A DNA stretch of 64,000 nt from Candidatus Omnitrophota bacterium. GTDB lineage: Bacteria; Omnitrophota; Gorgyraeia; Gygaellales; Profunditerraquicolaceae. The notes under the pieces were generated by a model that saw only the letters and a program-made list of their open reading frames with translations, was not told where the DNA came from and did not search any database. The translations under genes and the position numbers were made by a program. Shown in pieces: positions 20,903-54,635 of the stretch; the stretch's first letter is position 1, and every line of letters starts with the position of its first letter. The stretch spans positions 771-64,770 of the forward strand of contig JAHJJA010000149.1 in assembly GCA_018822885.1 (NCBI GenBank). Direction: 5' to 3'.

Positions 20903-22150
20903 TTAACCCTTGAATTTCTTGACGATCAGCGTTGCGTTGTGCCCGCCGAAGCCTAAAGAATTGGACATACACACTTCAAGGCTCATCTTACGGGCTGTAT
21001 TCGGAACATAATCGAGGTCGCACTCTGGATCGGGGTATTCGTAATTTATGGTAGGGGGAACAACGCCATCCTGTAAAGCCAGGCAGCAAACCACAAACTC
21101 TACTCCTCCGGCAGCTCCCAGCAGATGACCAGTCATGGATTTCGTAGAAGAGACTGCTACCTTCTTCGCATAGTCTCCCATTGCCCTCTTTATCGCCAAG
21201 GTCTCAAGCTTATCATTCAACTTGGTCGAGGTGCCATGCGCATTAATATAATCGACATCCTGCGGATTCAAATGCGAATCCTTTAAAGCAAGATTCATCG
21301 CGCGGGAAGCGCCATCGCCTTGAGGGTCCGGCGCAGTCATGTGATAAGCATCACAAGTCATACCATAACCTACGATTTCAGCCAAGATCTTGGCGTTTCT
21401 CTTCTTAGCGTGATCCAATGTCTCTAAGACTACTAAACCGCAACCTTCAGCCATTATAAAACCATCCCGCTCCTTATCAAACGGACGCGAGGCTTTTTGC
21501 GGTTCATTATTCCTCATAGAAAGCCCTTTAAGGGCGCAGAAACCTCCCACTCCGGTAGCTACAATACAGCTTTCAGTACCGCCGGCGACCATAACATCCG
21601 CGTCTCCGCGTTCCAAAATCCTAAACGCTTCTCCTATCGAATGTGAACCGGAAGCGCAGGCAGTAGCAACGCATGAATTCGGACCTTTTAAACCATAAAC
21701 AATACCAACCTGCCCTGCTGCTTCATTCACAATTAACATAGGAATCAGAAAAGGGGAAAGCCGGGATGGGCCCTTATTCAAGTATATCTTGTGCTGCTCC
21801 TCTATCGTATGCAGGCTTCCGATACCGGAACCGATTAAAGCCCCTATGCGCTCCCTGTCTTCTTTTGCTAGATCTAAACCGGATTGAGTAATCGCCTGTT
21901 TCGCGCTAGCTACGGCAAATTGCACAAATTGGTCCATGCGCTTGGTATCTTTGTGAGTCAAGCCATATAAGGCCGGATCAAAACCCTTGACTTCTCCGGC
22001 AATACGCGAGTCAAAACCAGCCGGGTCAAAATAGGTTATCGGCCCCACTCCGCTCTTTCCCTCTTTGATTGCCTGCCAAAAGCTGGAGACATCATTTCCA
22101 ACAGGAGAAATTATACCTAAACCCGTGACTACTACTCTATTTTCTTGCAT
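20903..22150 (-). CDS. fabF: Beta-ketoacyl-ACP synthase II.
   Basis: Active-site Cys in a GPNSCVATACASG context, with HAHGTSTKLND and GHLLGAAG motifs. 415 aa. Confidence 0.9.
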   Translation of the reverse strand: MQENRVVVTGLGIISPVGNDVSSFWQAIKEGKSGVGPITYFDPAGFDSRIAGEVKGFDPALYGLTHKDTKRMDQFVQFAVASAKQAITQSGLDLAKEDRERIGALIGSGIGSLHTIEEQHKIYLNKGPSRLSPFLIPMLIVNEAAGQVGIVYGLKGPNSCVATACASGSHSIGEAFRILERGDADVMVAGGTESCIVATGVGGFCALKGLSMRNNEPQKASRPFDKERDGFIMAEGCGLVVLETLDHAKKRNAKILAEIVGYGMTCDAYHMTAPDPQGDGASRAMNLALKDSHLNPQDVDYINAHGTSTKLNDKLETLAIKRAMGDYAKKVAVSSTKSMTGHLLGAAGGVEFVVCCLALQDGVVPPTINYEYPDPECDLDYVPNTARKMSLEVCMSNSLGFGGHNATLIVKKFKG

Positions 22151-22187
22151 GTCTAAAATTGGTTTTTTGATTTAAATGCCAATTACT

Positions 22188-22220
22188 AAATACCCCGCCA
22201 GTGTTTATAGCGGGGTATTT
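22188..22220 (-). promoter_or_regulatory. 11-bp-stem hairpin between acpP and fabF with no adjacent T-tract. Possibly an mRNA processing or stability element.
   Basis: AAATACCCCGC ... GCGGGGTATTT inverted repeat read directly. Confidence 0.3.
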
Positions 22221-22244
22221 TTATAGTTGAAATTAAATCATTCT

Positions 22245-22484
22245 TTATTTACTGCCGGCCTTTTCTTCGATGTACTTGACGGCGTCGCCGACTGTGGTTA
22301 TCTTCTCTGCGTCCTCATCGGGTATTTCGATCCCGAATTCCTCTTCTAAGGCCATAACCAGCTCTACGGTATCAAGGGAATCAGCGCCCAAGTCATCCAC
22401 AAAAGACGCTTCAGGAGTGACTTCCTCCGGCTTCACACCTAATTGCTCAGCTATGATTGACTTTACTTTCTCTTGCACTGCCAT
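22245..22484 (-). CDS. acpP: Acyl carrier protein.
   Basis: [20 protein letters not shown] phosphopantetheine-attachment motif. Confidence 0.9.
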
Positions 22485-22506
22485 TTGCTTTCCTCCTTTT
22501 AATAAA

Positions 22507-23250
22507 CTATGCCATTACCATTCCGCCGTCAACCACGATTGTCTGTCCGGTAATATAACTTGCTTCCTCCGAAGCTAAAAACAGACACACATTTGCCACA
22601 TCATCAGGGCTGCCCATCCTGTTCAACGGGATCAAAGCAAGCATTTTGTTCCTTACGTCTTCAGGAAGCTTAGCGGTCATTTCAGTTTGAATGAAACCCG
22701 GGGCAACCGCGTTGACATTTATATTACGGCTCGCGAATTCTTTTGCCGTAGTCTTTGTAAGAGCGATTATGCCTGCTTTTGAAGCTGAATAATTTGCCTG
22801 GCCGGCATTACCGATTATTCCTATTATGGAAGCGATGTTTACGATCTTGCCGTAACGCTGTTTCATCATGACACGGGACACGGCCTTTGTGCAATTGAAT
22901 GTACCTTTAAGGTTTACATTAATGACCGCATCCCAATCAGCATCACTCATTCTAAGCATCAAATTGTCTTTAGTGATGCCGGCGTTGTTAACTAATATAT
23001 CAACCTTTGTTAATTTGTCAAGGATTTTGTTTATTCCTTCTTCGACTTTAGTGAAGTTAGTAACATCCAACTCTAAAGCCAGTGATTTCCTGCCTAAAGC
23101 CTCGATCTCAAGGCATGTTTTTTCGGCATCCGCCTTGTTTATGTCAGCAACAGCTATATCAGCACCCTCCCTTGCCAAGGCAAGCGCGATCGATTTGCCG
23201 ATACCCCTGCCTGCTCCGGTGATCAAAGCGACCCTATCTTTCAGCCTCAT
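22507..23250 (-). CDS. fabG: 3-oxoacyl-ACP reductase.
   Basis: SDR family. [12 protein letters not shown] ... YSASKAG. Start set at the internal ATG, which has a GAGGTG SD. This avoids overlap with fabD. Confidence 0.85.
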
Positions 23251-23260
23251 AGTTTCACCT

Positions 23261-24181
23261 CTAGTTTTGCAAGTTAAGAATGTCTTCCTTCTTCTCAATA
23301 CTAACTACCTGCGCGCTTGGTTCAATGCGGCGCATAAGCCCCTTGAGCACTTTACCAGGCCCAAACTCATAGAATTTAGTTACCCCTTGAGATACTAACA
23401 ACCTTATTGATTCTTCCCATCTGACTGAAGAATACATCTGGTAAACCAGATTCTCTCTTATTTGAGCAGGCCTGTATTCCAGAGCAGCCGTATAATTACT
23501 CACTACGGGCACAACTGCCTGCCCAATAGCGATGTTCTGCAGAAAGCTCTTTAATTCTACGGACGCAGGGAACATGAGCGAAGAGTGAAACCCTCCGCTT
23601 ACCTCCAGCTCGATCACCCGCTTTGCGCCTGCTTCATTACAAAGTTTACTCGCTTCCTTAACCGCTTCGGCCTTGCCTGAAATAACGATCTGGCCCGGGG
23701 CATTGAGATTAGCGATCTCGGCTCCGCTTTTTAAACAGATCTCTTTGACCTTATTCAGATCTAGATCTAACACCGCAGCCATTTTACCGGGAAACCTGCG
23801 CGAGGCGTCATCCATTATCTCCGCCCTTCTTCTTATTAATCTTATGCCATCCTCAAAAGTAAGGCTTCCTGCTGCAATCAAAGCAGAATATTCACCTAAA
23901 CTCAAACCTGCCATAAATAAAGGTGTGACATCAGGAAATTTCACCTTAAAAGCCGCGTAAGCTGCGATTGTCGTAGCAAGAATCGCTGGCTGAGAGTTAA
24001 CCGTAAGCTTTAACACATCAGGCGCACCGGCGAAGCACATCTCTGACAAAGAAATACCCAAGATCTTATCCGCTTTATCAAAAATAGCCCTACTCTCCGG
24101 AAAGGAATCGTAAAGATCCTTTCCCATTCCTACATACTGGCTGCCCTGACCCGCGAATAGAAAAGCGGAATTATCTACCAT
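23261..24181 (-). CDS. fabD: Malonyl-CoA:ACP transacylase.
   Basis: [12 protein letters not shown] ... [10 protein letters not shown] active-site motif. Confidence 0.9.
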
Positions 24182-25152
24182 TTAATAACACAAGCTCCCC
24201 AGACAAGTCCAGCACCAAAAGCATCCAGAAGAATTATATCGCCTTTTTTAACCTTGCCCTCTTTCACTGCCTCGCACAAGGCCGTAGCAGTTGAAGCCGA
24301 GGACATATTGCCGCAACGCTCTATATTTAGGTAAATCTTATCTTCAGTAAGGCCTAATTTCTTTGCAACCGCCATAATGATCCTGGCATTTGCCTGATGA
24401 GGAATGATCAGATCTACATCAGAGAATTTCAAACCAGCCCTTTCCAAAACAGTCTCTGCGGCGTGAGTCATAGACTTTACGGCGATCTTAAACAGCTCAT
24501 TTCCCTCCATCTTAATATAATGGAGATGTTGTTCTACTGTTTCCTTAGAAGCAGGGTTTCTTGAGCCTCCTGCGGGGATCTTTAAAAGTTCGCTTAATCC
24601 TCCGTCACTGCCCAAATAAGTAGCGACTATGCCTCCTTCTTTTACTTCAGACAAAACAGCGGCCGCGGCTCCGTCTCCGAATAAAACGCAAGTGCCCCTA
24701 TCTGTCCAATCAGTGACCGAAGTAAGTTTCTCGGCACCTACGACCAGGGCGTTTTCATACGTTCCGCAGGCAATGAACTGCTGGGCAACGCTTAATCCAT
24801 ACACAAAACCGGCACAGGCAGCAGAGATATCAAAACAAGCAGCTTTTTTAGCAGAGATCGCGTTTTGCAAAAGGCAGGAAACTGCCGGGAATGGCATATC
24901 AGGGGTGATAGTTGCTACGATTATCAAATCCAGGTCTTGCGCCGAAAGATTAGCCTCGGAGAGGGCCTGCTTTGCGGCTTTGATGGCAAGGTCGCTTGTA
25001 GCCTCTTCTTTTTCAGCGATATGCCGCTCTTTAATGCCTGTGCGCGTGGTGATCCACTCATCGGAAGTATCTACCATTTTCTCCAGGTCAGCGTTCGTCA
25101 ATATCTTCTCTGGCAGATACTCGCCCAGGCCTATGACCCCTACTTTTTTCAT
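24175..25152 (-). CDS. fabH: Beta-ketoacyl-ACP synthase III.
   Basis: 325 aa, active-site ACAGF, C-terminal GAGLVWGA. Confidence 0.9.
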   Translation of the reverse strand: MKKVGVIGLGEYLPEKILTNADLEKMVDTSDEWITTRTGIKERHIAEKEEATSDLAIKAAKQALSEANLSAQDLDLIIVATITPDMPFPAVSCLLQNAISAKKAACFDISAACAGFVYGLSVAQQFIACGTYENALVVGAEKLTSVTDWTDRGTCVLFGDGAAAAVLSEVKEGGIVATYLGSDGGLSELLKIPAGGSRNPASKETVEQHLHYIKMEGNELFKIAVKSMTHAAETVLERAGLKFSDVDLIIPHQANARIIMAVAKKLGLTEDKIYLNIERCGNMSSASTATALCEAVKEGKVKKGDIILLDAFGAGLVWGACVIKW

Positions 25153-26147
25153 TTAGCCGCTGTCTTTCCGAGCGTTTCCAATATCTTTGCGTTTACCTGT
25201 CGCTCTACCTCTTCTTTGGCAACACGGATAGCATTCTTTATAGCTTTAACATTAGAACGCCCGTGGCCGATGATGACAACTCCATTTACTCCCAAAAGCG
25301 GAGCTCCGCCGTATTCAGAATAATCCAGGTCCTTTTTAAAACGCTTTAGGCTTGGCATTAAAAAAAGCAGTCCTATCTTTCCCCAGAAACTGCCTAATAT
25401 ATGCCTCTTCAAAAATACCTGCATGGTTTCTGCGGCGCTTTCAGAGACTTTTAACGCTACATTACCCACAAAACCATCGCAGACCACAACATCGCATTTA
25501 CCGGAAAAAAGGTCCTTACCTTCGATGTTACCGATAAAATTCAAGGGGCTCTTTTCAAGCAGATCGAAAGTCTCTTTCATAAACTCGGTGCCCTTTGCCT
25601 CTTCCTCTCCGATATTCAACAACCCTACAATAGGATTAGTTTTATTCAAAATATTGCGGCAATAAGCATCGCCCATGATGCCGTATTGCAATAACTGCGC
25701 CGGCTTTGGGTCGATATTAGCGCCGACATCAATAATAAGCGAAGCGCCTTTTAATGTAGGGGTGACAATAGCAATGCCGGGCCTCTCAATGCCGCTCAAC
25801 ATCCCCAAACCAAGGACTGCCGCGCAGGCGACAGCACCGGTATTTCCGGCGCTAAGAAAAGCATCACCATTACCCTCTTTTACCAAGTTAACCCCGATAA
25901 CAATGGAAGAATTTCTTTTTCTTCTGACGCTTGTGGCCGCAGACTCGGACATCTCAATGACTTCTTGAGCCGGATAAACCGAGATCCTTTCGCCTTTATA
26001 TTTGGATTTTTCAAGAAGGGATTTTATCTTTACTTCATCGCCAACGAGCACTATATTCACATTATACTCTTGTGCCGCTACTATGGCTCCCTCCACGACT
26101 ACGCCGGGAGCATAATCTCCTCCCATGGCATCAACGATGATCTTCAC
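25149..26147 (-). CDS. plsX: Phosphate acyltransferase PlsX.
   Basis: MKIIVDAMGGDYAP ... canonical PlsX. Conserved position rpmF-plsX-fabH. Confidence 0.9.
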   Translation of the reverse strand: MKIIVDAMGGDYAPGVVVEGAIVAAQEYNVNIVLVGDEVKIKSLLEKSKYKGERISVYPAQEVIEMSESAATSVRRKRNSSIVIGVNLVKEGNGDAFLSAGNTGAVACAAVLGLGMLSGIERPGIAIVTPTLKGASLIIDVGANIDPKPAQLLQYGIMGDAYCRNILNKTNPIVGLLNIGEEEAKGTEFMKETFDLLEKSPLNFIGNIEGKDLFSGKCDVVVCDGFVGNVALKVSESAAETMQVFLKRHILGSFWGKIGLLFLMPSLKRFKKDLDYSEYGGAPLLGVNGVVIIGHGRSNVKAIKNAIRVAKEEVERQVNAKILETLGKTAAK

Positions 26148-27301: not shown

Positions 27302-27852
27302 TGTTTTCTATAAAATGATAATGCAGTGTCTCCGTATCTGGCTTCTTTAACCAAAACGAGCTCACCGCTTTCTTTGGGTAGCTCGTCTTTCTTAGAATGT
27401 TGAGCTATAATAAAACCGCAAGGCGCTAATATATCATACGAGTTTAGGATTTGCAAGGTTTTTTTTGTCAATGATTCCGCATGCTTACTTTTATAATAAG
27501 GAGGATCGAGAAAAACAAGGTCAAACACCCTTTTTTCTTTTTTTAAGAAAGGTATTACTTTTTCAGCCGCATGAGGATATAAAAGGCAATTCCTAGGCCT
27601 AAGCAGTTCAATGTTCCTTTTTATGGCAAGCTGGCACTCCCGGTCAGATTCCGCCAGCACCAGTTCCCTTACTCCCCGAGAAAGCGCCTCAAAGCCAACT
27701 GCTCCTGAACCAGCGAACAACTCAAGAAAAGTCAAGCCCTCTACGTCGCCCAAAATATCAAAAATCGCCTTTCTTACCTTATCCTGCGTCGGCCTTATAC
27801 GCAAAGGCATCCTTAATACCCTACCCTTATATTTGCCTGTGGTGATCCTCAT
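27289..27852 (-). CDS. rsmD: 16S rRNA (guanine966-N2)-methyltransferase RsmD.
   Basis: RITTGKYKGR ... DPPY motif. Start set at the internal ATG adjacent to the upstream stop. Confidence 0.75.
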   Translation of the reverse strand: MRITTGKYKGRVLRMPLRIRPTQDKVRKAIFDILGDVEGLTFLELFAGSGAVGFEALSRGVRELVLAESDRECQLAIKRNIELLRPRNCLLYPHAAEKVIPFLKKEKRVFDLVFLDPPYYKSKHAESLTKKTLQILNSYDILAPCGFIIAQHSKKDELPKESGELVLVKEARYGDTALSFYRKQCAK

Positions 27853-29348
27853 CTTAAATACCTCAAAGCCAGCTCTGCCGCGTCTCTGCCGGAAACAAAA
27901 CAAGCGTGGGCTCCCCCTCCCGGGCGGGTCCAGGCGCCTGCCAAATAAAGCCCCTTTACCTTAGTTTCTTGAGAGAGTCTGTTCATTCCTGACTGCGGGA
28001 TAGTTTGGGCAAACCCGTATATCGCGCCTTCCGGAGAAGATCCATACCTGGCAATAGTCAATGGGGTCGCCACTTCCATGATCTCAATATGCTTTGAGAG
28101 CCCGGGCAAGTACTTTTCAACGCGCTCAATAAATTGCCTTGCTACCTCTATCTTCTTAATCCTGTATTCCTCTTTGGCAAATTTACTCCAATGCTGGAAA
28201 GTATCAAATGAAATAATCAGGATACTTCCCTTGCCCGCAGGGACTACACTCGGGTCGATCTGGGCATGATCTGTCAACAGCAAAGAGCACCTCTGGTAAT
28301 CTTGTTTTAAACTAAAATCGAAACTTTCATTATGATCATAGGTAGTATTAATTGAAAACATGAAATGGTCCATTCCTAATTCTTTTGCCGGAATATCCAA
28401 TCCCAGATAAACCTGGACTGCGGAAATAGATTTTTCTATTCGTGCAAGTTGTTGCGAATAATTTTTAGCAAGCAAGGGGTCATCTATCAATTCTGTCAAT
28501 GTCTCAATAGCGTTGGCGTTTGAGATCACGGTTTTTGACAGGATCTTCTCATCCCTATCCGTAACCACCCCTTTGACAACCCTGCCTTCTACAATGATCT
28601 TCTTAATAGAAGTATTAAATCTAACCTCTGAACCCTGCTCCTTGATCTTCTTGACTATCGCCTCAAAAAGCCTCATAAACCCGCCTTTAATATAAGCAGT
28701 ATGGCTATAATAATAGCCTTTAAACACCAATAAATAATACAATGCTGCCAATCTACGCGGAGGAAGCCCCACAAATCGCCAGATATCAGTAATAACAGAG
28801 GCCAGCTTAGGATCACTGATGAATTTGCTAATAAACTGCTCGACGCTTATAAGCGATGTCTTAATTAAAAGCGGGAATCGAAATGGAAGTATGAGCATAA
28901 CGATCCAACCCGGAAGTTTCAAATCGCAGAAACGATCAAACTGCTCAAAAAACTTTTTATACTCCCTGAATAATCTATCGATATTCTTGGATTCTGCGGG
29001 AAAATCTTTCTTTAACGAAGCCGCTAAGTTATCGCAGTTAAAATCCACCAGGAAATCATGGTCAGGATAAATCAGCCGGCAAAAATCCTTTAACTCAATA
29101 AACTCTACCATCTTGTCAACGCCGAATTCCTCCAAAAACTCCCGCACCTCTCCACCTTCTCCCAGGCTATCAACGCAATGGAGGCTCGACTCAAAAACAA
29201 AGCCTTTACGGGTAAAAGTAGTAGCAAGCCCTGCGCAAACCGTCTGCTTCTCTATGACCAAAACTTTCTTACCCGAGTAGGATAATTTTAAACCGGCAGC
29301 CAGCCCGCCGATTCCGGCTCCGATAATTATGCAATCATATTCTTTCAT
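27849..29348 (-). CDS. FAD/NAD(P)-dependent oxidoreductase of the phytoene-desaturase / amine-oxidase (CrtI-like) family.
   Basis: N-terminal DCIIIGAGIGGLAAGLKL ... VLVIEK dinucleotide-binding motif. 499 aa. Confidence 0.7.
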   Translation of the reverse strand: MKEYDCIIIGAGIGGLAAGLKLSYSGKKVLVIEKQTVCAGLATTFTRKGFVFESSLHCVDSLGEGGEVREFLEEFGVDKMVEFIELKDFCRLIYPDHDFLVDFNCDNLAASLKKDFPAESKNIDRLFREYKKFFEQFDRFCDLKLPGWIVMLILPFRFPLLIKTSLISVEQFISKFISDPKLASVITDIWRFVGLPPRRLAALYYLLVFKGYYYSHTAYIKGGFMRLFEAIVKKIKEQGSEVRFNTSIKKIIVEGRVVKGVVTDRDEKILSKTVISNANAIETLTELIDDPLLAKNYSQQLARIEKSISAVQVYLGLDIPAKELGMDHFMFSINTTYDHNESFDFSLKQDYQRCSLLLTDHAQIDPSVVPAGKGSILIISFDTFQHWSKFAKEEYRIKKIEVARQFIERVEKYLPGLSKHIEIMEVATPLTIARYGSSPEGAIYGFAQTIPQSGMNRLSQETKVKGLYLAGAWTRPGGGAHACFVSGRDAAELALRYLR

Positions 29349-30217
29349 AGCTTATTAAAGAAATTTATCAGTTCAGTTGCTACTTTGTCTTTATCCTTAT
29401 CTATAGTGATCATATGATAACTATTCTCAAGGATGACCAGCGACTTTTGCGTTGAGCCGATATTATCATACACATACCTTGAGTTCTTAAGGCTGGTCAT
29501 ATCATCTTCGCGGGCATGAATGATGACTATAGGAGTATTTACACTTCTGAATTCTTTTTTCGCTACTTTTGTAAAAATGTGGTGCTGGTAAAGACAAGCC
29601 ATAGGAAAAAAAGGGCTACCGAATAAAAGCACTTTTTTGTACGCCTGTTTTGCATCGGCATTCTTATAAAAACGCTCAATATTCTCCCTTAGCTCCTCAT
29701 CTTTAAGGCCATAAGGCCAGCCTTCTCTGATATCAAACAAATTGCGCACAAAAGGCATATGCCAGGTAAGCTCCATCAGGATTTTACCTTTGTGCAAGGC
29801 CCAGCCATCATAGAACAACGTTGGGGCAAGCGCTGCTATTCCTGAGACTTTTGAGGGAAATAGATAAGCCAAGTGTATAGACATTACAGCGCCCATAGAA
29901 AGCCCGCCAACAAAGACTTTTTCATGCCCTTCTTTCAGTCGGTTAAGGTCTTTTACGCAGGCATCTGCGATTTCCTGCCAAGTTACTTTCTTGAGCTCTT
30001 GAAGCGTTCCGCAGTGACGCGGCAAAACACCGCAAAAAACAGAAAAACCCGCCTGATTCAGTAACTTTGCCTGATAGCGCATCTCCGAAGGAGTGCCGGT
30101 TATCCCGTGGATAAGAAGAACAGCTTTACCGTTTCTGCCTTCCAGAAAAAAGTCGTATTTTTTTGTTTGTGCGTTTTCCATAGAGTTGGTATTATACCAT
30201 AATTTAATTAATTTCAA
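29345..30217 (-). CDS. Alpha/beta-hydrolase (carboxylesterase-like).
   Basis: Nucleophile elbow GGLSMG (GxSxG) and an HG oxyanion motif in LLIHGITG. Confidence 0.65.
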   Translation of the reverse strand: MKLIKLWYNTNSMENAQTKKYDFFLEGRNGKAVLLIHGITGTPSEMRYQAKLLNQAGFSVFCGVLPRHCGTLQELKKVTWQEIADACVKDLNRLKEGHEKVFVGGLSMGAVMSIHLAYLFPSKVSGIAALAPTLFYDGWALHKGKILMELTWHMPFVRNLFDIREGWPYGLKDEELRENIERFYKNADAKQAYKKVLLFGSPFFPMACLYQHHIFTKVAKKEFRSVNTPIVIIHAREDDMTSLKNSRYVYDNIGSTQKSLVILENSYHMITIDKDKDKVATELINFFNKL

Positions 30218-30264: not shown

Positions 30265-31428
30265 ATGGAAATACTAGACAAAGTAGAATTCAAGATTATT
30301 GACTCCATAAAAGATATCTCCAAAAAAGATTGGGAAAGCCTTTTTGGAACAGACTCTCCTGAAGGCTACGGCTATCAAAAATCCCTAGAAGAATCCGGCA
30401 TACCCGGATTTGACTTTGGCTATGTAGTAGGCACTAGTAATAATAAAACACTAACCACCCTTCCATTCTTTATAAACGATTTCTCGCTAGGCATGTTTTG
30501 CCAGGGCCTTCCAAGAAGCCTTATCGCATCTGCACAAAAAATATTCCCCCGCTTCTTAAGGTTCAAGCTTCTTTTTATCGGTTCTCCTACTACAGAAGAA
30601 TTTAAAACCAGGAGCTTAAATAGTAGCGACCTAAATACTTTGGTAGGGCCCGCCCTAGAAATAATCCATCAATATTGTCGAGATAATAAAATAAACGCAA
30701 CCGTTTTCTACAATTTATCCGGGAATGAAAGAATATTGGCGGATTATTTTAAAACACAAGGATTCTTCTGTATGAATGGCCTGCCCAGCACTATGATAGA
30801 AATCAAAGCAAAATCGCTTGATGAATTCATTCAGAGGCTTGGCAAAAGCACACGCAAAGACCTGCGGCACAAACTAAGAAACTCCGCTCTCCAGGCAAAC
30901 CTTACCACAGAGACCAGAGACAATATCGAAAGCATTGAAAACGAAGTTTACAGCCTATACCTTAACAATTTTAACGGCTCTGATATCCATTTTGAAATAC
31001 TGCCGATCAAATTTTTCAGGGAAATCTCTAATAATATGCCCGGTGTGGCAAAATATTTTATTACCCGCGATAACGGTAAAATCGTCGCCTTTAACTTATG
31101 CCTGATAAAAAATGATACTTGTATTGACAAGTTTATTGGCTTTGACTCTGGAGTCGCGCATAAATACCATCTTTACTTCACCACACTCTCCCATAATATA
31201 GGCTGGTGCATTGATAATGGGATTAGATTTTACCAGACAGGAGCCACTGATTACCTACCCAAGGTACGCCTCGGAGCAAAATTGATCCCCCTATTGATTC
31301 TTTTTAAAGCCTTCAACCCCCTCCTACACCTGACACTGCGCTTATTCTCCGGCTTATTAAAACCGGAAAACCTCGATTCCTCCCTGAAAGAGATCTCAAA
31401 ATTCCGCAAGACCCGGTCTTACAAATAG
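30265..31428 (+). CDS. DUF482/COG3146-like (BioF2/FemAB-like) GNAT-fold acyltransferase.
   Basis: N-terminus DSIKDISKKDWESLFGTDSPEGYGYQKSLEESG resembles the DUF482 N-terminus. 387 aa. Its last 8 codons plus stop lie inside a palindromic repeat element. Confidence 0.5.
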   Translation: MEILDKVEFKIIDSIKDISKKDWESLFGTDSPEGYGYQKSLEESGIPGFDFGYVVGTSNNKTLTTLPFFINDFSLGMFCQGLPRSLIASAQKIFPRFLRFKLLFIGSPTTEEFKTRSLNSSDLNTLVGPALEIIHQYCRDNKINATVFYNLSGNERILADYFKTQGFFCMNGLPSTMIEIKAKSLDEFIQRLGKSTRKDLRHKLRNSALQANLTTETRDNIESIENEVYSLYLNNFNGSDIHFEILPIKFFREISNNMPGVAKYFITRDNGKIVAFNLCLIKNDTCIDKFIGFDSGVAHKYHLYFTTLSHNIGWCIDNGIRFYQTGATDYLPKVRLGAKLIPLLILFKAFNPLLHLTLRLFSGLLKPENLDSSLKEISKFRKTRSYK

Positions 31429-31480
31429 CCAAGACCCGGTCTTGACTTTCTATCACAATGTTAAGACCAGGTCTTGATGC
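31401..31480 (+). repeat. REP-like element with three tandem AAGACC[C/A]GGTCTT palindromes. The 48-bp core (31429..31480) recurs inverted at 33781..33840.
   Basis: Palindromes at 31408..31420, 31430..31444 and 31462..31476. 46 of 52 positions match the reverse complement of 33781..33832. Confidence 0.65.
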
Positions 31481-31599
31481 TATTTTTTTCTCCTAAGCAA
31501 GCGCTTTCTTTTTTGGCGATAATAGCATTGCATCCTTATAATGTATAATACATACTTTAAGCAAGGTCGATATTAAAATTATAATGGAGGACAGTTAAA

Positions 31600-33756
31600 A
31601 TGAAGAAAATAGCAGTCATAGGGCTTTATTTTTGTCTTTTTGTTTGTAGCGCATTTGTTATTCAAAAGGCTTTTGCCGGTGAAGACGGCCTCAGCATCTC
31701 CGGCAGTTACGACAATAGTTTTTCCGCCGATTATGATTACATATTGAATGACAATAATAGCTATGGCTCTTCTTCCAGCTATGATTACATCGCCAATAAC
31801 GATAACTTTGATTACTCCGATTCAAATTACGATTTTTTTAGTAATATCCCTGATTCACTGAGCCTTAGCATGGATAATAATAATTTTTACGCACCTTCCA
31901 ACCTTGATTACCTTAATAATGATAACTACGATTTTGCCAATTTAAATAACAACTATCTTAGTAATATCCCTGACAAATTGTCGCTTAGTATGGGAGACAT
32001 GGGCAACAATCTTTACAACGCCCCTTTCAACGATTTTGATTATTATCCCCCGGCTCAAAATTTCGCTACCGATGTTGTTTCTGTAGGGCTTGAACCGGCA
32101 GGGGCTTTTGGCGTCAGAGGTAATATTCATAATTCCCCCCCTGTCGGAATGCCTCTTGATGCTAATGATCCCTTGGGCTCTCCTATCAATAACGACACTC
32201 TTCCAACTAACCCTGGTATGAATAATCCAGCGGATTTTCCTATCAATACTAAAGCTCTCCAACGCATTGCTGCTGAAGGCTTTATGCTTCCTAAAAACAA
32301 CGTCGATAACCAATCAGATATTTCTATTAATCACGATCCGCTCTGTGGCGGAATGGATTATGATACATCTATGGCAGGCTTAAGCGACATTAACACTGCC
32401 CCTGGCCCAACTGTCGGAATGCCTTTTGACAACAACCAGCAAGCGTCTGCTTCCGTTGATTCTATGGCAGACAATCTCATCTCTATGCCGGGAGCAAGCG
32501 ATCTGGAAATTGCTTCGCTTCCAGCTGCTGATATTACATCATATCCTCATGGCGACTGTCGTTCAGCACAAGATATAGCCGCTCATCCAAGCAATTTCTT
32601 AAATACCCCGGACTTATATACAAAAAGTGCGGCCGCGCCAGTTAATGACTTATCGAAGAATACTCCAGCAACAGTGCCTGCCTATGAACAAACCGTATTA
32701 GAAACCGGTAACCGCGCGCTTGTAAGAGATCCTTCCGATCCTATTGGTTACACCGGGATAGACACCACGCCTGCAAATGATCCTTCAATGCTTAGCAAAA
32801 TAGGCAGCGGCATCGGAAAAGGCCTAAGTTATGTTTGGGAAGGTAAAAAAGGACCAGGAAATGAAGGCGGAGGTATTGCCGGCGTAATTAGCGGCGTAGT
32901 CAGCGTAGTCCCTTATGTAGCTAACGCTTCTATTACCGGGGTAGCGGGGGACATAAAAGATGGTGCCCAAAAAGTGAGTTCTCTCTGGAAAGATGAGCCT
33001 GTTGAAGTTCCAAGCGTAATACAACCCAGGGAAATCGTCCCCCCTCCATTTGTAGAGCCCGGTTCAACGCGAAAAACTACTATTCCCACTATACCAGAGT
33101 CTACTTTCACTAAAATCAACAACAAAGCCGCCGAAGTGGTTGATTATGTAGGCGAAGCTTCTCTTGTCAAAGTAGTAGGTGACATAAAAGAAGGCGTTAA
33201 GTGGACAACTGGTAAAATAGCGAACGGAACGGATTACGTAGTAGACAAAGCAAGCTCTCTTTGGTCGCAATCAGAACCGCAGACTCCGAATCCATATGCC
33301 GGATCAGAAAATTATGATATGCCGGTGCCCCAAGCAGCGCCATTTGACTATATCCCAAACACTGCAGTAACAGAACCAAACACAACCTCTACGTACAATG
33401 GAGAAAATATTGATAACATGATGAGATCTCATGATCCGTATCTTGATGACAACAGCGGAATAAATATCAATGCGGCAAATCCAATAATCGATAGAACCAC
33501 TTTAGGGGCACAAGCTCCAATCCATGACGCACTTTCACCAAGCATCGCGCAACCAAATGACACCAATGATCACATTGAGGCAGATTTTGATTTATATCCT
33601 ACGCTAGACATACAATCTGGCCCTACTGATCACTATGATTTCGTCACACCTCCAGCTCCAAGTTACAATAATCCTATCGGAGATCTTTCTAATCATCCAC
33701 TTAGATTAGATCGCCTCAAATCAGATAGCGATACGAACCCTATAAAATATTACTAA
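31600..33756 (+). CDS. Secreted, low-complexity Asn/Asp/Tyr/Ser-rich repeat protein of unknown function.
   Basis: Signal peptide MKKIAVIGLYFCLFVCSAFVIQKAFA with a GGAGGA SD. Internal repeats (SNIPDSLSLSMDNNN / SNIPDKLSLSMGDMGNN; VGMPLD / VGMPFD; GDIKDGAQKVSSLWKDEP / GDIKEGVKW...SSLWSQSEP). 718 aa. Confidence 0.7.
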   Translation: MKKIAVIGLYFCLFVCSAFVIQKAFAGEDGLSISGSYDNSFSADYDYILNDNNSYGSSSSYDYIANNDNFDYSDSNYDFFSNIPDSLSLSMDNNNFYAPSNLDYLNNDNYDFANLNNNYLSNIPDKLSLSMGDMGNNLYNAPFNDFDYYPPAQNFATDVVSVGLEPAGAFGVRGNIHNSPPVGMPLDANDPLGSPINNDTLPTNPGMNNPADFPINTKALQRIAAEGFMLPKNNVDNQSDISINHDPLCGGMDYDTSMAGLSDINTAPGPTVGMPFDNNQQASASVDSMADNLISMPGASDLEIASLPAADITSYPHGDCRSAQDIAAHPSNFLNTPDLYTKSAAAPVNDLSKNTPATVPAYEQTVLETGNRALVRDPSDPIGYTGIDTTPANDPSMLSKIGSGIGKGLSYVWEGKKGPGNEGGGIAGVISGVVSVVPYVANASITGVAGDIKDGAQKVSSLWKDEPVEVPSVIQPREIVPPPFVEPGSTRKTTIPTIPESTFTKINNKAAEVVDYVGEASLVKVVGDIKEGVKWTTGKIANGTDYVVDKASSLWSQSEPQTPNPYAGSENYDMPVPQAAPFDYIPNTAVTEPNTTSTYNGENIDNMMRSHDPYLDDNSGININAANPIIDRTTLGAQAPIHDALSPSIAQPNDTNDHIEADFDLYPTLDIQSGPTDHYDFVTPPAPSYNNPIGDLSNHPLRLDRLKSDSDTNPIKYY

Positions 33757-33757
33757 A

Positions 33758-33871
33758 CAAAAGGGGACGTTTCTATTTATTAAACATCAAGACCCGGTCT
33801 TAGCATTGAGATAGAAAGTCAAGACCGGGTCTTAATTATGTTTCAGAAAAATAGAAACATCCCCTTTTGTT
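33758..33871. repeat. Compound nested palindrome of about 114 bp. Outer arms are ACAAAAGGGGACGTTTCTATTT and AAATAGAAACATCCCCTTTTGT. The inner part is an inverted copy of the 48-bp AAGACCCGGTCTT double-palindrome element. Likely a bidirectional terminator between convergent genes.
   Basis: Read directly. Inner palindromes at 33788..33802 and 33819..33834. Confidence 0.6.
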
Positions 33872-33879
33872 TATTTCTT

Positions 33880-35067
33880 TTAAAACTTCCTTAAGGCCAA
33901 ACAGGCGTTGTTCCCTCCAAATGCGGAGGCGTTGTTAAGGGCGATATTGACTCCTGCCTTCCGCGCGACATTCGGCACGCAATCAATATCACAATCAGGG
34001 TCAGGTGTTTCGTAGTTAATAGTAGGCGGGATCATATCTGTTTTTAGCGCCATGCAGCAGGTGATTGCCTCAATAGCAGAAGCAGCTCCCATGGTATGGC
34101 CCAACATTGATTTTATCGAACTTACAGGAATATTGCGGTAATTATCCGGAAAGGCTTTTTTTATACCAAGGCACTCTTCCCTGTCGTTTGAAGGCGTACC
34201 TGTGCCATGCGCGCTGATGTAACTAACATCGCTCTTCTTTATCCCTGAATCATTGACCGCTTTTTCCAACGCATCCTTTATCCCTTCGGAAAATGGTGCT
34301 GTCATATGATGAGCGTCACAGCTTAGGCCATAGCCTAAGATCTCCGCGTAAATATTCGCCTTTCGTTTAAGAGCGCTCTCAAGCGGCTCTACCACCACAA
34401 CCCCTGCGCCCTCGCCAACCATCATCCCTTTGCGATTCTTGTCAAAAGGCTGGCATACTTTAGGCGCAACTGCCAAAAGGCGGTTAAAACCAATAAAGGC
34501 TATTCGAGAAAACGCATCAGCCCCACCAGCTAGCATAAACTCCGCCTCGCCTGCGCGGATAAGATCATAGGCATAACCAATAGCATAATTGCCGGCAGCA
34601 CATGCAGTAGGTATGACAAAATTGGGACCTTTTAATTTAAAATGATCAGCAACATTCAGAGACAGAACATTGGTAGGATATTTTGGGATCAGGCTTACGT
34701 CAATAGCATCGATTCCTTTATGGACCCAGGTATCGTTGATCACCTCAAGGACCTGTGACTCACCCATGGTCGTCCCAAGACAGATCCCGAAAGCATTCTT
34801 ATCAGAATCATTAATAGCTAAACCGGAATCCTCTAAAGCAAGCTTTGAAGCGGCTATGGCAAGCTGTGATGCCCTGCCTGGGCCCGCTGTCTTAAAATGC
34901 TTTACTTCTCCGCCAAGATGCGTCGGAAAAGCCGATGTATCAAAAGAGGAGATCTCTGAGATCCCGGATACGCCTTTAGTAAGCGCCTCCCAAAAAGCTT
35001 GCTTGCCAATCCCTATTGATGAAACAACCCCAAGCCCAGTAATGACAATGCGCTTTCCCGAACCCAT
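33880..35067 (-). CDS. Beta-ketoacyl-ACP synthase (KAS I/II family) with an intact catalytic Cys-His-His.
   Basis: PTACAAGNYA (Cys), AHGTGTPSND (His), SMLGHTMGAA (His). 395 aa. Confidence 0.85.
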   Translation of the reverse strand: MGSGKRIVITGLGVVSSIGIGKQAFWEALTKGVSGISEISSFDTSAFPTHLGGEVKHFKTAGPGRASQLAIAASKLALEDSGLAINDSDKNAFGICLGTTMGESQVLEVINDTWVHKGIDAIDVSLIPKYPTNVLSLNVADHFKLKGPNFVIPTACAAGNYAIGYAYDLIRAGEAEFMLAGGADAFSRIAFIGFNRLLAVAPKVCQPFDKNRKGMMVGEGAGVVVVEPLESALKRKANIYAEILGYGLSCDAHHMTAPFSEGIKDALEKAVNDSGIKKSDVSYISAHGTGTPSNDREECLGIKKAFPDNYRNIPVSSIKSMLGHTMGAASAIEAITCCMALKTDMIPPTINYETPDPDCDIDCVPNVARKAGVNIALNNASAFGGNNACLALRKF

Positions 35068-35502
35068 CTAATTTTCCTTCACACTAATACTAAGCTCTCC
35101 CCTGGCAACTTCTTTGTCGCTGACTTGCGCTGTTACGTTGACAATGCCTCCCGTAGAAATCAGCTTGACCGGGACTACGGTGATCCTGATCTGATCACCG
35201 GGAAAAACCGGATTCAAGAACTTAATCTTTACATTCCCCAGATAATAAGAATACTTCTTAGCTGCCTGCTCCGGTTTGGCCCCGGCAAAAAGCATTATTG
35301 AGGCCTGCGCCATTGCCTCGATTATCAAGACTCCCGGCATGACAGGCGCATCAGGAAAATGCCCGGAAAAAAACTCCTCATTTACAGAGACGTTTTTAAT
35401 CGCCACCACTTTTGCGCCCGGCTCTAATTCTATTATGCGGTCGATCATCAAAAACGGAAAGCGCTGGGGCAGTATTTTCTGGATCTCTTCTATGTTATAC
35501 AT
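35068..35502 (-). CDS. FabZ/FabA-like hot-dog 3-hydroxyacyl-ACP dehydratase.
   Basis: FPFLMIDRIIELEPG ... HFPDAPVMPGVLIIEAMAQ signature. Confidence 0.8.
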   Translation of the reverse strand: MYNIEEIQKILPQRFPFLMIDRIIELEPGAKVVAIKNVSVNEEFFSGHFPDAPVMPGVLIIEAMAQASIMLFAGAKPEQAAKKYSYYLGNVKIKFLNPVFPGDQIRITVVPVKLISTGGIVNVTAQVSDKEVARGELSISVKEN

Positions 35503-35503
35503 T

Positions 35504-35752
35504 TTAGACCGCCTTCTTTTCTAAATATTCCTTGGCCACTCTGACTGTATCGCTTAAGGTAGTTAATTGAGTAAGTTTTTCTTCAGGAATGACGATCTTA
35601 TATTTCTTTTCAACCGCAGTGAGGATCTCAAGAGCCATCATAGAATCCACTCCCAGCTCTTCAAAAAACTTTGCTTCAGGTGTTATCTCACTCGGCTCCT
35701 TTTCAATGATCTCCGCAATAAGCCCTCTTATTTCGTTTTCAACATTTTCCAT
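35504..35752 (-). CDS. Dedicated acyl carrier protein (second ACP in the window).
   Basis: LGVDSMMALEIL attachment motif. 82 aa. Confidence 0.8.
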   Translation of the reverse strand: MENVENEIRGLIAEIIEKEPSEITPEAKFFEELGVDSMMALEILTAVEKKYKIVIPEEKLTQLTTLSDTVRVAKEYLEKKAV

Positions 35753-35765
35753 AGTATCCTCTCTC

Positions 35766-35790
35766 TAAAAAAGGGGACGTTTCTATTTTT
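35766..35790. repeat. Copy of the AAAAGGGGACGTTTCTATTT motif (R2 family) in the spacer between the KR gene and the ACP gene.
   Basis: Identical 20-mer at 33760..33779. Inverted near-copy at 33850..33869. Related GGGACGTTTTC at 41572..41582. Confidence 0.4.
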
Positions 35791-35804
35791 CCCCTTTTCC
35801 CCTA

Positions 35805-36551
35805 CTACCTAATAGATAATCCGCCGTCAATAATCATAACCTGCCCGGTAATAAAACTGCTTGCCTCGCTTAGTAAAAACTTGACTACCCCCGTGACATC
35901 TTCGACTTTCCCAAAACGCTCTAAGGGGATATTCTTTATTAACTGGCCTTTATACTCCGGCTTTAAATCGGAGACCATATCAGTCTCGATAAATCCCGGG
36001 GCAACCGCATTGACCCTAATGCCATAAGGAGAAACTTCTCTTGCCAGCGACTTAGTAAAACCGATGATACCGGCTTTGGAAGAGGCGTAATTAGTCTGCC
36101 TTGCCAGGCCAATGACCCCGCTTACCGAAGTAATATTTACTATATTGCCGCTTTTTTGCTTTAAAAAAGCCACGATCGCGTTACGGCTAAGATTAAAGGT
36201 GCCTGTGAGATTCGTGTCGATGACATCCTGCCAATCCTCTTTGCTCATCATCATAAGAGCCTTATCCCTGGTGATGCCGGCGTTGTTCACGATAATATCA
36301 AGCCCGCCAAGCGTTGTTTTGACATTTTCAACCGCTTCTTTGGTCTTATCAAAATCACGCACATCCACTTGTAAGGCCAAGGCTTTTACCCCGGATTTCT
36401 CGATCTCCTTTTTCAAAGAAGCTGCTTCATCAACGCTTTTTAAATAAGTAAAAGCCACGTCCGCGCCTTCTTGGGCAAGCATCAAACAAATTCCCCTGCC
36501 TATCCCCCTTGTCCCGCCGCTGACAATCGCTACTTTGTTTTTTAATATCAT
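35805..36551 (-). CDS. SDR-family 3-oxoacyl-ACP reductase-like ketoreductase.
   Basis: VAIVSGGTRGIGRGI ... NAG ... YASSKAG motifs. Start set at the internal ATG abutting the upstream stop. Confidence 0.8.
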   Translation of the reverse strand: MILKNKVAIVSGGTRGIGRGICLMLAQEGADVAFTYLKSVDEAASLKKEIEKSGVKALALQVDVRDFDKTKEAVENVKTTLGGLDIIVNNAGITRDKALMMMSKEDWQDVIDTNLTGTFNLSRNAIVAFLKQKSGNIVNITSVSGVIGLARQTNYASSKAGIIGFTKSLAREVSPYGIRVNAVAPGFIETDMVSDLKPEYKGQLIKNIPLERFGKVEDVTGVVKFLLSEASSFITGQVMIIDGGLSIR

Positions 36552-37549
36552 TGAAATCTCCCGATAATCATGCTTGTGGCAGTACAATTTAAACCGGAGG
36601 CGCTTATCAAGACTTTATCTATATTTGCATTCTTTTCCATAGAAGCTAATCCTGCTGCTGCAGAAACAGCGCCCTGGGCGCTCAAGCAATCCCCGGTGAG
36701 TGATCTTATCTTCTCCATATCCTGGACCAAATCAATATCTTTATCACTAAGCCCAGCCCTGTTCAAGCAAGAGTTAACAGAATCCTGTAAACCGGATGGG
36801 CCGATACCGTTGCCAAATGCCAGGACTTCAGCGTATATTTTTCTTTTTCTGGCCAAAGCAGATTCCAGATCTTCCAACACTAAAACCGCTGACCCCTCCC
36901 CAAGAATAAAACCATTATTTTCCATTAAGCCAGTTTTGTAAAATCCCAGAAAAGTCTCAAGACACAACTCCTCAACTCCCCCTGTCAACACTGCTTTTAT
37001 CCGCCCCAACCTCAAAAAATCAAAAGCATACTTTAATGCATCAAGGCTCGCGCTAAAACCGGTTGAGAGCGTGGCATTAAATCCCTTAATATTAAACCTT
37101 ATCGAAAGCTGGCTAGCCGGAGAATTAACCACCGTATTTGGAAAAAGCGCCGGATTAACATAATGAGGCCCTTCCCGCAATGCCTCCTTATCGAATTCCA
37201 TGATGCTATGCGCGCTTCCCAAAGTAGAGCCGATAGCAATTCCGGTTGAACGCGAATTTTCTTCGGTGATTTCTAAACCGGAGTCTTTTAAACCAAGATA
37301 TGCCGCGCAAGAAACCAGCTTGATACTCCTATCAAGCGTACGCAAGCCCTTAACTCCTAAGAACTCCTGGGGATTAAAGTCACTTATCTCGCCGGCAGTC
37401 TTAACGGTAAAATCCTTCGTATCAAATAAGGTAATAGGCTTTATCCCGCTCTTGCCGCTTAAAACCGCGTCAAAAAAGGCGTCTTTTCCTGTGCCGCAGG
37501 CGCTTAGTATCCCTATTCCAGTTATTACTACTCTTCTTTTATCCATCAT
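36548..37549 (-). CDS. Truncated ketosynthase-like protein lacking the active-site Cys (chain-length-factor / KS-beta-like partner).
   Basis: N-terminus RVVITGIGILSACG is KS-like. The aligned active-site position reads STGFSAS (Phe in place of Cys). The His-motif region reads GDCLSAQGAV (His replaced by Asp). Only 333 aa. Confidence 0.6.
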   Translation of the reverse strand: MMDKRRVVITGIGILSACGTGKDAFFDAVLSGKSGIKPITLFDTKDFTVKTAGEISDFNPQEFLGVKGLRTLDRSIKLVSCAAYLGLKDSGLEITEENSRSTGIAIGSTLGSAHSIMEFDKEALREGPHYVNPALFPNTVVNSPASQLSIRFNIKGFNATLSTGFSASLDALKYAFDFLRLGRIKAVLTGGVEELCLETFLGFYKTGLMENNGFILGEGSAVLVLEDLESALARKRKIYAEVLAFGNGIGPSGLQDSVNSCLNRAGLSDKDIDLVQDMEKIRSLTGDCLSAQGAVSAAAGLASMEKNANIDKVLISASGLNCTATSMIIGRFQ

Positions 37550-37812
37550 AAATTAATAATTATATACCTTTTACCATCTTATCTCAAGAGTTATTCAATC
37601 AAGAAGGTCAATAAGACTTTATGCCTTTGCTGACGGCACATTGAATTTTTTGCCATCTTCGCACTAGAAACAGGTCTGCGAGGAATTGCGGCGAGCGGAA
37701 GTCCCCAGTGTTAGGAAAGGAATTCTGAGAGCGAGCCGCAAACGGAAGCAGACGGAAAAAAATTCTGTGACGGAAGCAAAGGTATAAAGGCTTATTGTAT
37801 TCAATAATTATC

Positions 37813-54584: not shown

Positions 54585-54635
54585 TCTGCCTCCTGATTAA
54601 AAGCCGGTTTATGCTGATACCAACCTCTTGCCCGA

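Follow-up and report, generated by a model that had tools for sequence, protein, structure and literature searches.

Ladderane biosynthesis is a long-standing open problem, for which reviews dated August 2026 list three competing mechanisms. The putative ladderane gene cluster of Kuenenia, named Cluster I (KustE3603-3608), encodes the acyl carrier protein (ACP) amxACP, the dehydratase (DH) amxFabZ, the ketosynthase (KS) amxFabF2, its homolog amxFabFmut, the flavoprotein PDH, and a B12 radical-SAM enzyme (bioRxiv 10.64898/2026.05.19.726425). The proteins amxFabF2 and amxFabFmut form a heterodimer (PDB entries 9S5H and 9S5I) resembling a KS paired with a chain length factor (CLF). They are active only jointly and prefer C6-C8 probes over C16; Iga11 is given as the structural homolog nearest to amxFabF2 (bioRxiv 10.64898/2026.05.19.726425). 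The hallmarks of amxFabZ are a bulky residue 69 and a hydrophobic residue 115, and the enzyme refuses canonical ACP (PMC10139942). Cluster I has been called unique to ladderane producers (bioRxiv 10.64898/2026.05.19.726425), and the structural papers treat Cluster I and the "amx" proteins as specific to these organisms (bioRxiv 10.64898/2026.05.19.726425; PMC10139942). Here we analyzed a 64,000-nucleotide (nt) stretch of DNA from Candidatus Omnitrophota bacterium (assembly GCA_018822885.1, contig JAHJJA010000149.1, positions 771 to 64,770), referred to below as the window. It contains a five-gene operon that we consider the probable counterpart, in a non-anammox (probably Omnitrophota) host, of the fatty acid synthase (FAS)-like core of Cluster I. 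An earlier note on this DNA, made from the sequence alone, had described the operon and had missed Cluster I as its closest known system.

The five-gene operon and its relation to Cluster I

The operon lies on the minus strand and is read from 37549 to 33880. Its first gene encodes a triad-less, CLF-like KS homolog of the amxFabFmut family (36548..37549; 333 amino acids, aa), called the partner below. It is followed by genes for a FabG-type 3-oxoacyl-ACP reductase, the ketoreductase (KR; 35805..36551; 248 aa from the ATG), a dedicated ACP with a DSM phosphopantetheine site (35504..35752; 82 aa), a FabZ-type DH of the amxFabZ kind (35068..35502; 144 aa), and an active KS of the amxFabF2 kind (33880..35067; 395 aa). 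The partner stop codon and the KR start codon share an ATGA, which was read directly in the sequence. The remaining junctions measure 0-1 nt, with the exception of a 52-nt spacer between the KR and ACP genes. The earlier note had proposed a module of these five genes, including the ATGA overlap and set apart from the housekeeping FAS; all open reading frames (ORFs) were present, and Pfam and NCBIfam agreed on them. Its estimate of 15 kb to the fab genes was too large: the housekeeping plsX-fabH-fabD-fabG-acpP-fabF cluster is located at 20903-26147, at a distance of 7.7 kb (plsX) to 11.7 kb (fabF). The operon and its 333-aa protein are identical in the independent Logan assembly SRR2540949 and were also found in the metagenome-assembled genome (MAG) GCA_018824265.1 (contig JAHJGW010000065.1), showing that they are not an assembly artifact. 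The nearest homologs and the syntenic loci belong to Candidatus Omnitrophota MAGs.

Four of the five proteins have their best solved matches in Cluster I. The KS matched chain B of 9S5H/9S5I (9s5h_B) with 496 bits and is 57% identical to amxFabF2; next came the ishigamide KS Iga11 with 336 bits, and ordinary FabF proteins reached at most 309 bits. The best PDB match of the partner was chain C of the same entries (9s5h_C; 238 bits), to which P0034, a full-length member of its family, aligned over the whole length with 411 bits. The DH scored 135 bits against amxFabZ (7QV0, 8AYB) and 115 bits or less against other FabZ proteins. For the ACP, the top PDB matches were the amxACP entries 7qv0_D, 7auf, and 9s5i_E.

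The residues agree with these matches. The KS has the full triad (Cys156, His287, and His324), as the earlier note had read, and keeps the tunnel and metal-site residues Ala155, Phe194, Met326, Ser285, Glu333, and Asn378/379. In amxFabF2 numbering, Ala164, Phe203, Met337, the metal-site residues, and the gate Phe394 (Phe383 in the window KS) are retained. In the partner, the Cys position reads Phe (Phe165; STGFSAS), and the His motif had likewise been recognized as degenerate. Our alignment shows that the His1 segment is deleted and that His2 is replaced by Asp (GDCLSAQ). The partner is 44% identical to amxFabFmut and 31% identical to the window KS. The residues that line the tunnel in amxFabFmut (Phe135, Thr138, and Val139) have equivalents in Phe136, Thr139, and Val140 of the partner. 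The DH, whose numbering is identical to that of amxFabZ, has intact His48 and Glu62; it carries Ile69 where canonical FabZ proteins have the tunnel Gly and Ile115 where they have the ACP-docking Arg/Lys.

Both KS-type proteins are below the cutoff of the FabF equivalog TIGR03150 (493.75; KS, 409.3; partner, 192.9), and the KS just passes the broader subfamily model NF005589 (388.2 versus 387). Pfam detects both KS domains in the 395-aa KS and the N-terminal KS domain PF00109 alone in the partner. The KR and DH pass the generic models TIGR01830 (302.9 versus 297.75) and TIGR01750 (156.2 versus 155.15), respectively. The KS is 41% identical to the FabF of the window, and the KR is 47% identical to the housekeeping FabG. 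In neighbor-joining trees with few outgroups (a single FabF in the KS part), anammox and non-anammox partner subunits formed one clade (bootstrap 95/100), and the anammox sequences came out as monophyletic among the KSs (98) as well as among the partners (100). The structural matches, the partner clade, the hallmark residues, and the family-wide triad loss and synteny in 37 loci described below together support the assignment of the operon as a Cluster I counterpart.

The larger window ORFs scanned and the conserved neighbors of related loci included no enoyl reductase (ER) of the FabI, FabK, FabL, or FabV type. This agrees with the earlier note, and no FabI/FabK/FabL-type reductase was found adjacent to the module. 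Upstream of the operon is a 263-bp intergenic region following recG. The best sigma-70-like promoter match (TTGAGA-17-TATAAT; 37559..37587, minus strand), assigned by consensus only with 11 of 12 positions, ends 10 nt before the first gene. An Rfam scan of the whole window gave nothing at gathering thresholds. A 20-25-nt motif, AAAAGGGGACGTTTCTATTT, occurs at 33754-33778, 33849-33873, and 35769-35791. The copies in the KR-ACP spacer and past the end of the KS gene do not differ, and an inverted copy lies 70 nt off; the motif may be a terminator, a repetitive extragenic palindromic (REP)-like element, or a regulatory element.

The truncated partner subunit

Loss of the catalytic triad is common to the whole partner family. 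The triad was absent from 240 of 240 homologs examined, in which the Cys position is occupied by Phe, Ser, or Tyr (mostly Phe), with Val or Thr in the anammox proteins, and His2 is replaced by Glu in 237. The tunnel motif FPNTV was found in 119 of the 120 homologs checked for it. Since the anammox member forms a heterodimer, the argument of the earlier note that a Cys-less, CLF-like protein pairs with a catalytic KS is well founded; the affiliation with aryl-polyene and flexirubin systems that it attached to this argument is not (see the last section).

Compared to full-length relatives of ~410 aa, the 333-aa partner lacks four segments: the CPFDKRRNG loop, a loop of ~10 residues, the His1 region (~28 residues), and the PPTINY region (~26 residues). 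The segments were lost stepwise across 121 family members, whose length classes are ~402 aa, ~364 aa, and finally 326-338 aa. Losses of the loop and of the PPTINY region recur in several other groups of the tree, suggesting independent losses, and partners of 326 and 338 aa are encoded in otherwise complete operons. The deletions fall within the C-terminal half, which bears the partner's own defunct active site (His1/His2 regions). In amxFabFmut, the tunnel to this site was described as unlikely catalytic (bioRxiv 10.64898/2026.05.19.726425).

An AlphaFold model of the 333-aa partner as a single chain had a pLDDT of 91.4 and a pTM of 0.91, and it superposed on KAS II structures with a query-normalized TM score of ~0.9. 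The sole uncertain part comprises residues 131-141, within the interface helix-loop-helix. This element is largely disordered in amxFabFmut crystallized without amxFabF2 (bioRxiv 10.64898/2026.05.19.726425). Between genomes, the partner is 52-55% identical, compared to 63-70% for the KS and 57% for PDH. Its divergence is comparable to that of other operon genes, including those for PDH and FabZ.

The absent triad and the loss of ~80 residues from the C-terminal half would also fit a decaying FAS duplicate, in which the 333-aa ORF is a degraded, functionless FabF remnant. We find this scarcely credible. Triad-less partners are conserved across three phyla, and the same four segments were lost stepwise, some apparently repeatedly, with the reading frame intact. 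Moreover, the operons are otherwise complete, the divergence is ordinary, the fold is confidently predicted, and the gene is translationally coupled to the KR gene. The earlier note had itself raised the case of a FabF pseudogene without a partner, and this does not apply to a family in which the partner is conserved in intact operons. Thus, the confident fold, the divergence like that of operon genes, and the coupling of the stop codon to the KR start indicate that the 333-aa protein looks like a maintained, minimized scaffold subunit and not a pseudogene. As a natural "minimal" CLF-like subunit, it shows which parts of the KS fold are dispensable after catalysis is lost and is of use for the engineering of KS/CLF pairs.

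Related loci, neighboring genes, and the proposed pathway

A profile of the partner family was searched against GTDB species genomes and retrieved 193 relatives, the best 80 of which are the basis of all loci counts. These are 43 loci from Brocadiales (anammox) and 37 non-anammox loci, the latter mostly from Omnitrophota, including the closed genome of Candidatus Velamenicoccus archaeovorus, and in four cases from Thermodesulfovibrionia/Nitrospirota MAGs. For the Thermodesulfovibrionia homologs, a cultured host was sought, and the named entries among the top 120 were all MAGs. Contigs permitting, the anammox order is ACP-FabZ-FabF2-FabFmut-PDH, followed by a 486-aa B12 radical-SAM gene; the non-anammox order is partner-(FabG)-ACP-FabZ-KS. 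Among the 37 non-anammox loci, FabZ was present in 29, FabG in 26, a CrtI-family flavoprotein in 17, and 18 carried a release-type enzyme. The latter was a cyanobacterial-AAR-like reductase in 6 loci, an NAD_binding_4 thioester reductase in 5 loci, and an α/β-hydrolase in 7 loci. Linkage of the module to the housekeeping plsX-fab genes is seen in Omnitrophota as well as in Thermodesulfovibrionia. At locus L083, a seven-gene unit (CLF-KR-ACP-DH-KS-hydrolase-PDH) resides in an unrelated chromosomal neighborhood, and the unit thus moves as a block.

The radical-SAM gene separates the two groups of loci. Its ortholog follows PDH in 39 of the 43 anammox loci, and the other four are short contigs that end earlier. 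In the 37 non-anammox loci, no ortholog was detected beside the module within ±10 kb. The absence of this gene from the non-anammox clusters points to the radical-SAM enzyme as the prime candidate for the ladderane-specific step. The B12 radical-SAM gene at 57527-58960 of the window was rejected as the Cluster I ortholog: it is 27.7% identical, resembles HpnJ (390 bits, below the model cutoff of 577), and is located 20 kb away in a glycosylation island.

Three window genes next to the module belong to the conserved cluster. An α/β-hydrolase of the bacterial monoacylglycerol-lipase/Est30 type with a GLSMG nucleophile elbow (29345..30217, minus strand; started at 30181 by gene callers, 278 aa) is the proposed release enzyme. 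Its stop overlaps by 4 nt with the start of the gene for a 499-aa, CrtI-family flavoprotein of the phytoene-desaturase/carotenoid-isomerase-like type (27849..29348, minus strand). The flavoprotein resembles CrtI and CrtD structures and is below the cutoffs of TIGR02734 (191.5 versus 238 bits) and of the cis-trans isomerase model TIGR02730 (172 bits). On the plus strand and convergent with the KS gene, a 387-aa FemAB-like/GNAT (Acetyltransf_6) protein is encoded (30265..31428), a candidate acyl- or aminoacyl-transferase for which the NCBIfam and PDB searches gave no relatives. The nearest related clusters, which form one clade with the window (L052, L056, L068, L071, L072, L078, L080, L083, and L084), carry the KS gene, then the α/β-hydrolase and CrtI-family genes, often with the FemAB/GNAT-like gene convergent to the KS gene. 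The hydrolase directly follows the KS in L056, L068, L078, and L083, and the FemAB-like gene has the same position in L047, L071, L072, L080, and L084. The earlier note had seen no starter-unit ligase, thioesterase, or exporter in the window. As regards a thioesterase or tailoring genes, this is wrong: the hydrolase-flavoprotein pair (27849-30217) and the FemAB-like gene are such cluster members, split off from the operon by an apparently inserted cassette.

This 2.4-kb cassette (31417..33847, plus strand) is bounded by 63-nt inverted repeats (31417-31479 and 33785-33847) that are 86% complementary and hold the palindrome CAAGACC(C/G)GGTCTTG. Its ORF (31600-33756, plus strand) encodes a 718-aa, N/D/Y-rich protein with an N-terminal hydrophobic segment and without a Pfam or NCBIfam match. 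The KS/FemAB junction is empty in relatives, and the 718-aa ORF therefore looks like a mobile cassette inserted in the cluster.

By analogy with the anammox proteins, the active KS (Cys156/His287/His324) would pair with its dead 333-aa homolog in a KS/CLF-type heterodimer. The partner helix-loop-helix (Phe136, Thr139, and Val140) would wall a single acyl tunnel, the partner's own vestigial active-site entrance being deleted. The pair would prime by decarboxylating malonyl-ACP and condense malonyl units on the dedicated ACP; in each round, FabG would reduce the 3-keto group and the Ile69-constricted FabZ would dehydrate. The tunnel residues of the partner and the FabZ tunnel would keep the chains short, at ~C6-C10 if they behave as in anammox. 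Without a cluster ER, the chain would stay unsaturated as a short enoyl- or polyenoyl-ACP, or the flavoprotein would handle the C=C bonds by saturation, isomerization, or further desaturation. CrtI-type enzymes act on polyenes, which, together with the similarity of the KS to Iga11, supports a chain that stays unsaturated. The lipase-type α/β-hydrolase would release the chain; in sister clusters, an acyl-ACP or thioester reductase would do so instead and give an aldehyde or alcohol. The operon thus most likely represents a dedicated, insulated, reductase-less short-chain acyl-ACP line feeding a specialized lipid. The plsX-fab linkage in Omnitrophota and Thermodesulfovibrionia and the varied release enzymes argue for a lipid building block over a pigment.

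If the flavoprotein or a distal reductase supplied the missing ER activity, the module would be an insulated mini-FAS for saturated medium-chain acyl-ACP, such as octanoyl-ACP for lipoylation or a medium-chain lipid substituent. The C6-C8 preference of the anammox KS pair and FabZ, the double-bond saturases within the CrtI family, and the release enzymes are compatible with this. So are genes for dihydrolipoamide dehydrogenase (Lpd), LipB, and a lipoyl-domain protein upstream of the module in the Velamenicoccus clade, and an Lpd-like gene in 30 anammox loci. We consider a mini-FAS unlikely. The Lpd/LipB linkage is clade confined and absent from the window. A flavoprotein gene was detected in only 17 of the 37 loci, and several of these loci extend little beyond the module. 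Thioester reductases that yield aldehydes or alcohols would not suit a lipoate route, and we know of no CrtI-family enoyl-ACP reductase.

As an observation in its own right, the Lpd, LipB, and lipoyl-domain genes are immediately upstream of the module in L074 (7275-9511), L055, L058, and L070, with the LipB identified by eye as octanoyltransferase-like. The dihydrolipoamide-dehydrogenase-like gene of the 30 anammox loci comes after the Cluster I radical-SAM gene (e.g., L003, 14355-15788). No such neighbors were found in the window. A link of the short-chain line to octanoyl/lipoyl metabolism is possible.

The module could also serve an anaerobic branch point for unsaturated fatty acids similar to FabA/FabB or FabX, at which the flavoprotein isomerizes or dehydrogenates C8-C10 intermediates and the KS pair extends the cis-enoyl chain, which then reenters bulk FAS. 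The preference for short chains agrees with the length at which such branch points usually lie, the flavoprotein family includes cis-trans isomerases, and the module adjoins the plsX-fab cluster in Omnitrophota and Thermodesulfovibrionia. A dedicated ACP and an amxFabZ that refuses canonical ACP, however, argue for insulation from bulk FAS, and release by a hydrolase or reductase implies off-loading and not return, which makes a branch point highly improbable.

Several points weigh against the assignment as a Cluster I-type short-chain line. In the KS tree, the KS clade without Iga11 has a weak bootstrap of 31/100, and the grouping of the KS with Iga11 reached 51/100. By BLASTP, the ACP scored 49 bits against amxACP versus 61 bits against the window AcpP. 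Its sequence orthology is weak, and its assignment is supported by synteny. The flavoprotein is 27.7% identical to the Cluster I PDH, whereas other Omnitrophota PDHs are more amx-like (31-39%); it falls into a different subgroup and could reflect independent recruitment. A crude net-charge comparison of the helix-loop-helix and its partner helix, meant to detect the electrostatic asymmetry published for the interface, did not show this pattern even for the crystallized anammox pair and is uninformative. For heterodimer formation and chain length, the extrapolation starts from anammox proteins with 44-57% identity. For the anammox heterodimer itself, malonyl-ACP decarboxylation and acetoacetyl-ACP formation were the only activities observed in vitro, with no elongation shown (bioRxiv 10.64898/2026.05.19.726425). 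Moreover, other parts of the genome may encode an ER.

At least two other phyla share, in synteny, the KS pair, the FabZ hallmarks, and a CrtI-family partner, and the radical-SAM gene was found only in anammox loci. The shared module must then have a function unrelated to cyclobutane formation, and the shared intermediate could be identifiable through the simpler non-anammox system. Tentatively, the module could be an old, widespread anaerobe pathway (Omnitrophota, Thermodesulfovibrionia, and Brocadiales) for a short unsaturated or activated acyl block, from which anammox bacteria gained ladderanes essentially by adding one B12 radical-SAM enzyme; we regard this as possible but doubtful. If it is true, the Omnitrophota product would be identical or very similar to the substrate long sought for the ladderane-forming step. 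Omnitrophota would also carry an undescribed lipid class, whose form on release (acid, aldehyde, or alcohol) would vary with the clade.

Further observations concern the related loci. MAGs labeled uncultured Planctomycetia or Planctomycetales (L070, L048, L054, L061, L062, L071, and L077) have an Omnitrophota-type cluster. For L070, the proteins checked share 90-100% identity with their counterparts in Candidatus Velamenicoccus archaeovorus, and thus the label of at least L070 looks unreliable. A nitroreductase-family (BluB/SagB-like) flavoprotein is encoded beside an amx-like PDH in L050 (16108-16752), L076, L077, and L082; its gene stands between KS and PDH in three of the four Omnitrophota clusters that bear one. 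A 426-aa protein with an S-adenosylmethionine (SAM)-methyltransferase domain is encoded immediately upstream of the partner in L051, L057, L059 (8713-9993), L060, and L064, which are all four Thermodesulfovibrionia versions and one Omnitrophota locus. A 7TM-sensor histidine kinase gene is in the cluster neighborhood of 11 loci and directly follows PDH in L050 and L065.

Elsewhere in the window, a region at 6566-9703 encodes an acyl-CoA dehydrogenase (8552-9703), EtfB, and an EtfA with an N-terminal 2x[4Fe-4S] ferredoxin domain (6566-7771). This would be a Bcd/Etf-type enoyl-CoA reductase system, possibly electron bifurcating, which is CoA and not ACP dependent and located ~24 kb from the module. 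The glycosylation island (50496-63387) harbors several GT2/GT4 glycosyltransferase and methyltransferase genes, a SPASM radical-SAM gene (53460-54584), the HpnJ-like B12 radical-SAM gene mentioned above, and a gene for an 858-aa STT3-family oligosaccharyltransferase (60811-63387). A ParA/MinD-type ATPase (AAA_31) fused to an AMPK1_CBM/CBM48 glycogen-binding domain is encoded next to a GH57 glycoside hydrolase (1603-2706 and 3354-4925) and may position glycogen granules.

Comparison with described systems

With housekeeping FAS II (FabF/FabG/FabZ/AcpP), the module shares folds and chemistry, and its KR and DH pass the generic models. It differs by its inactive second KS-family gene, a FabZ without the tunnel Gly and docking Arg/Lys, and a separate ACP. 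Two types of polyketide synthase (PKS) were considered and rejected. Aromatic type II PKS (KSα/KSβ) did not fit, as the partner has Phe and not Gln at the Cys position, no cyclase genes were found, and actinorhodin KSα (225 bits) and KSβ (84 bits) scored below FabF. Cispentacin-type PKS models remained below their cutoffs (AmcF, 229 versus 325; AmcE, 80.6 versus 140; AmcB, 27.6 versus 80).

Aryl-polyene (ApeO/ApeC/ApeR) and flexirubin clusters of Gram-negative bacteria likewise combine KS, CLF, KR, DH, and ACP without an ER, and the iterating KS/CLF pair, KR, and DH give a long outer-membrane polyene pigment. The earlier note had suggested an aryl-polyene-like pigment or a specialized membrane lipid as the product; the lipid is viable, and the pigment is very improbable in our view. 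In its favor are the missing ER, the CLF-like partner, precomputed Pfam matches of the DH that include ApeI-like and ApeP-like families, and the flexirubin short-chain dehydrogenase/reductase FlxB among the high-scoring KR models (253.9 bits). FlxB nevertheless stays below its cutoff of 340, while generic FabG passes. The ApeR structures 7F27 and 4EWG match the KS with 194-199 bits, below FabF/FabB (FabF, up to 309 bits), and the 60 matches listed included no entry identified as ApeO or ApeC. Accessory genes of aryl-polyene type for an aryl-starter CoA ligase, a thioesterase, a LolA-like protein, MMPL, a glycosyl- or acyltransferase, or a methyltransferase, some of which the earlier note had suggested as search targets, were found neither among the window ORFs scanned nor as conserved genes in the 37 related loci. 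Furthermore, Ile69 constricts the FabZ tunnel, and the plsX-fab linkage in two phyla fits core lipid metabolism better. The specialized lipid is therefore retained as the more plausible product type.

The highly reducing type II PKS for ishigamide (Iga11/Iga12; PDB 6KXD-F) has a KS/CLF pair, discrete KR, DH, and ACP proteins, and no ER in common with the module. Since polyene-forming Iga11 is the second-closest solved KS, a short polyenoyl product may be formed. The match of the window KS to Iga11 is, however, much weaker than that to amxFabF2 (336 versus 496 bits), and the partner is closer to Bacillus subtilis FabF (275 bits) than to 6kxd_A (Iga11; 229 bits). Also unlike the ishigamide system, the window has a FabZ with a constricted tunnel and no amide-forming or other ishigamide tailoring gene.

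Surveys with antiSMASH already list "ladderane" biosynthetic gene clusters from Omnitrophota as well as other phyla, without assigning a function to them (PMC9902471, PMC11968836). The mere presence of ladderane-like clusters in Omnitrophota is not new. These calls are rule based, without residue, phylogenetic, or synteny comparison to Cluster I, and the surveys are silent on the missing radical-SAM gene, the release enzymes, and the truncated partner. In the literature, we found no report that traces orthologs of the Cluster I core beyond anammox bacteria by residues and phylogeny, nor of the restriction of the radical-SAM gene to anammox loci, alternative release enzymes, or a reductive series of the partner. 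In the accessible part of Rattray et al. (2009), other anammox lipid gene clusters are described as syntenic with Desulfotalea, and Cluster I is not tied to that synteny.

Compared to Cluster I, the window module has its own FabG, no B12 radical-SAM gene by the module, and a host outside the anammox bacteria. Its genes are arranged as partner-KR-ACP-DH-KS instead of ACP-DH-KS-partner, and its partner is cut to 333 aa, with Phe at the Cys position where the anammox proteins have Val/Thr. The flavoprotein is of a subgroup other than that of the Cluster I PDH and is paired with an α/β-hydrolase. Common to both systems are an active KS with a triad-less partner of the same clade and the same tunnel residues, a FabZ with Ile69 and a hydrophobic residue 115, a dedicated ACP, a CrtI-family flavoprotein, and the lack of an ER.

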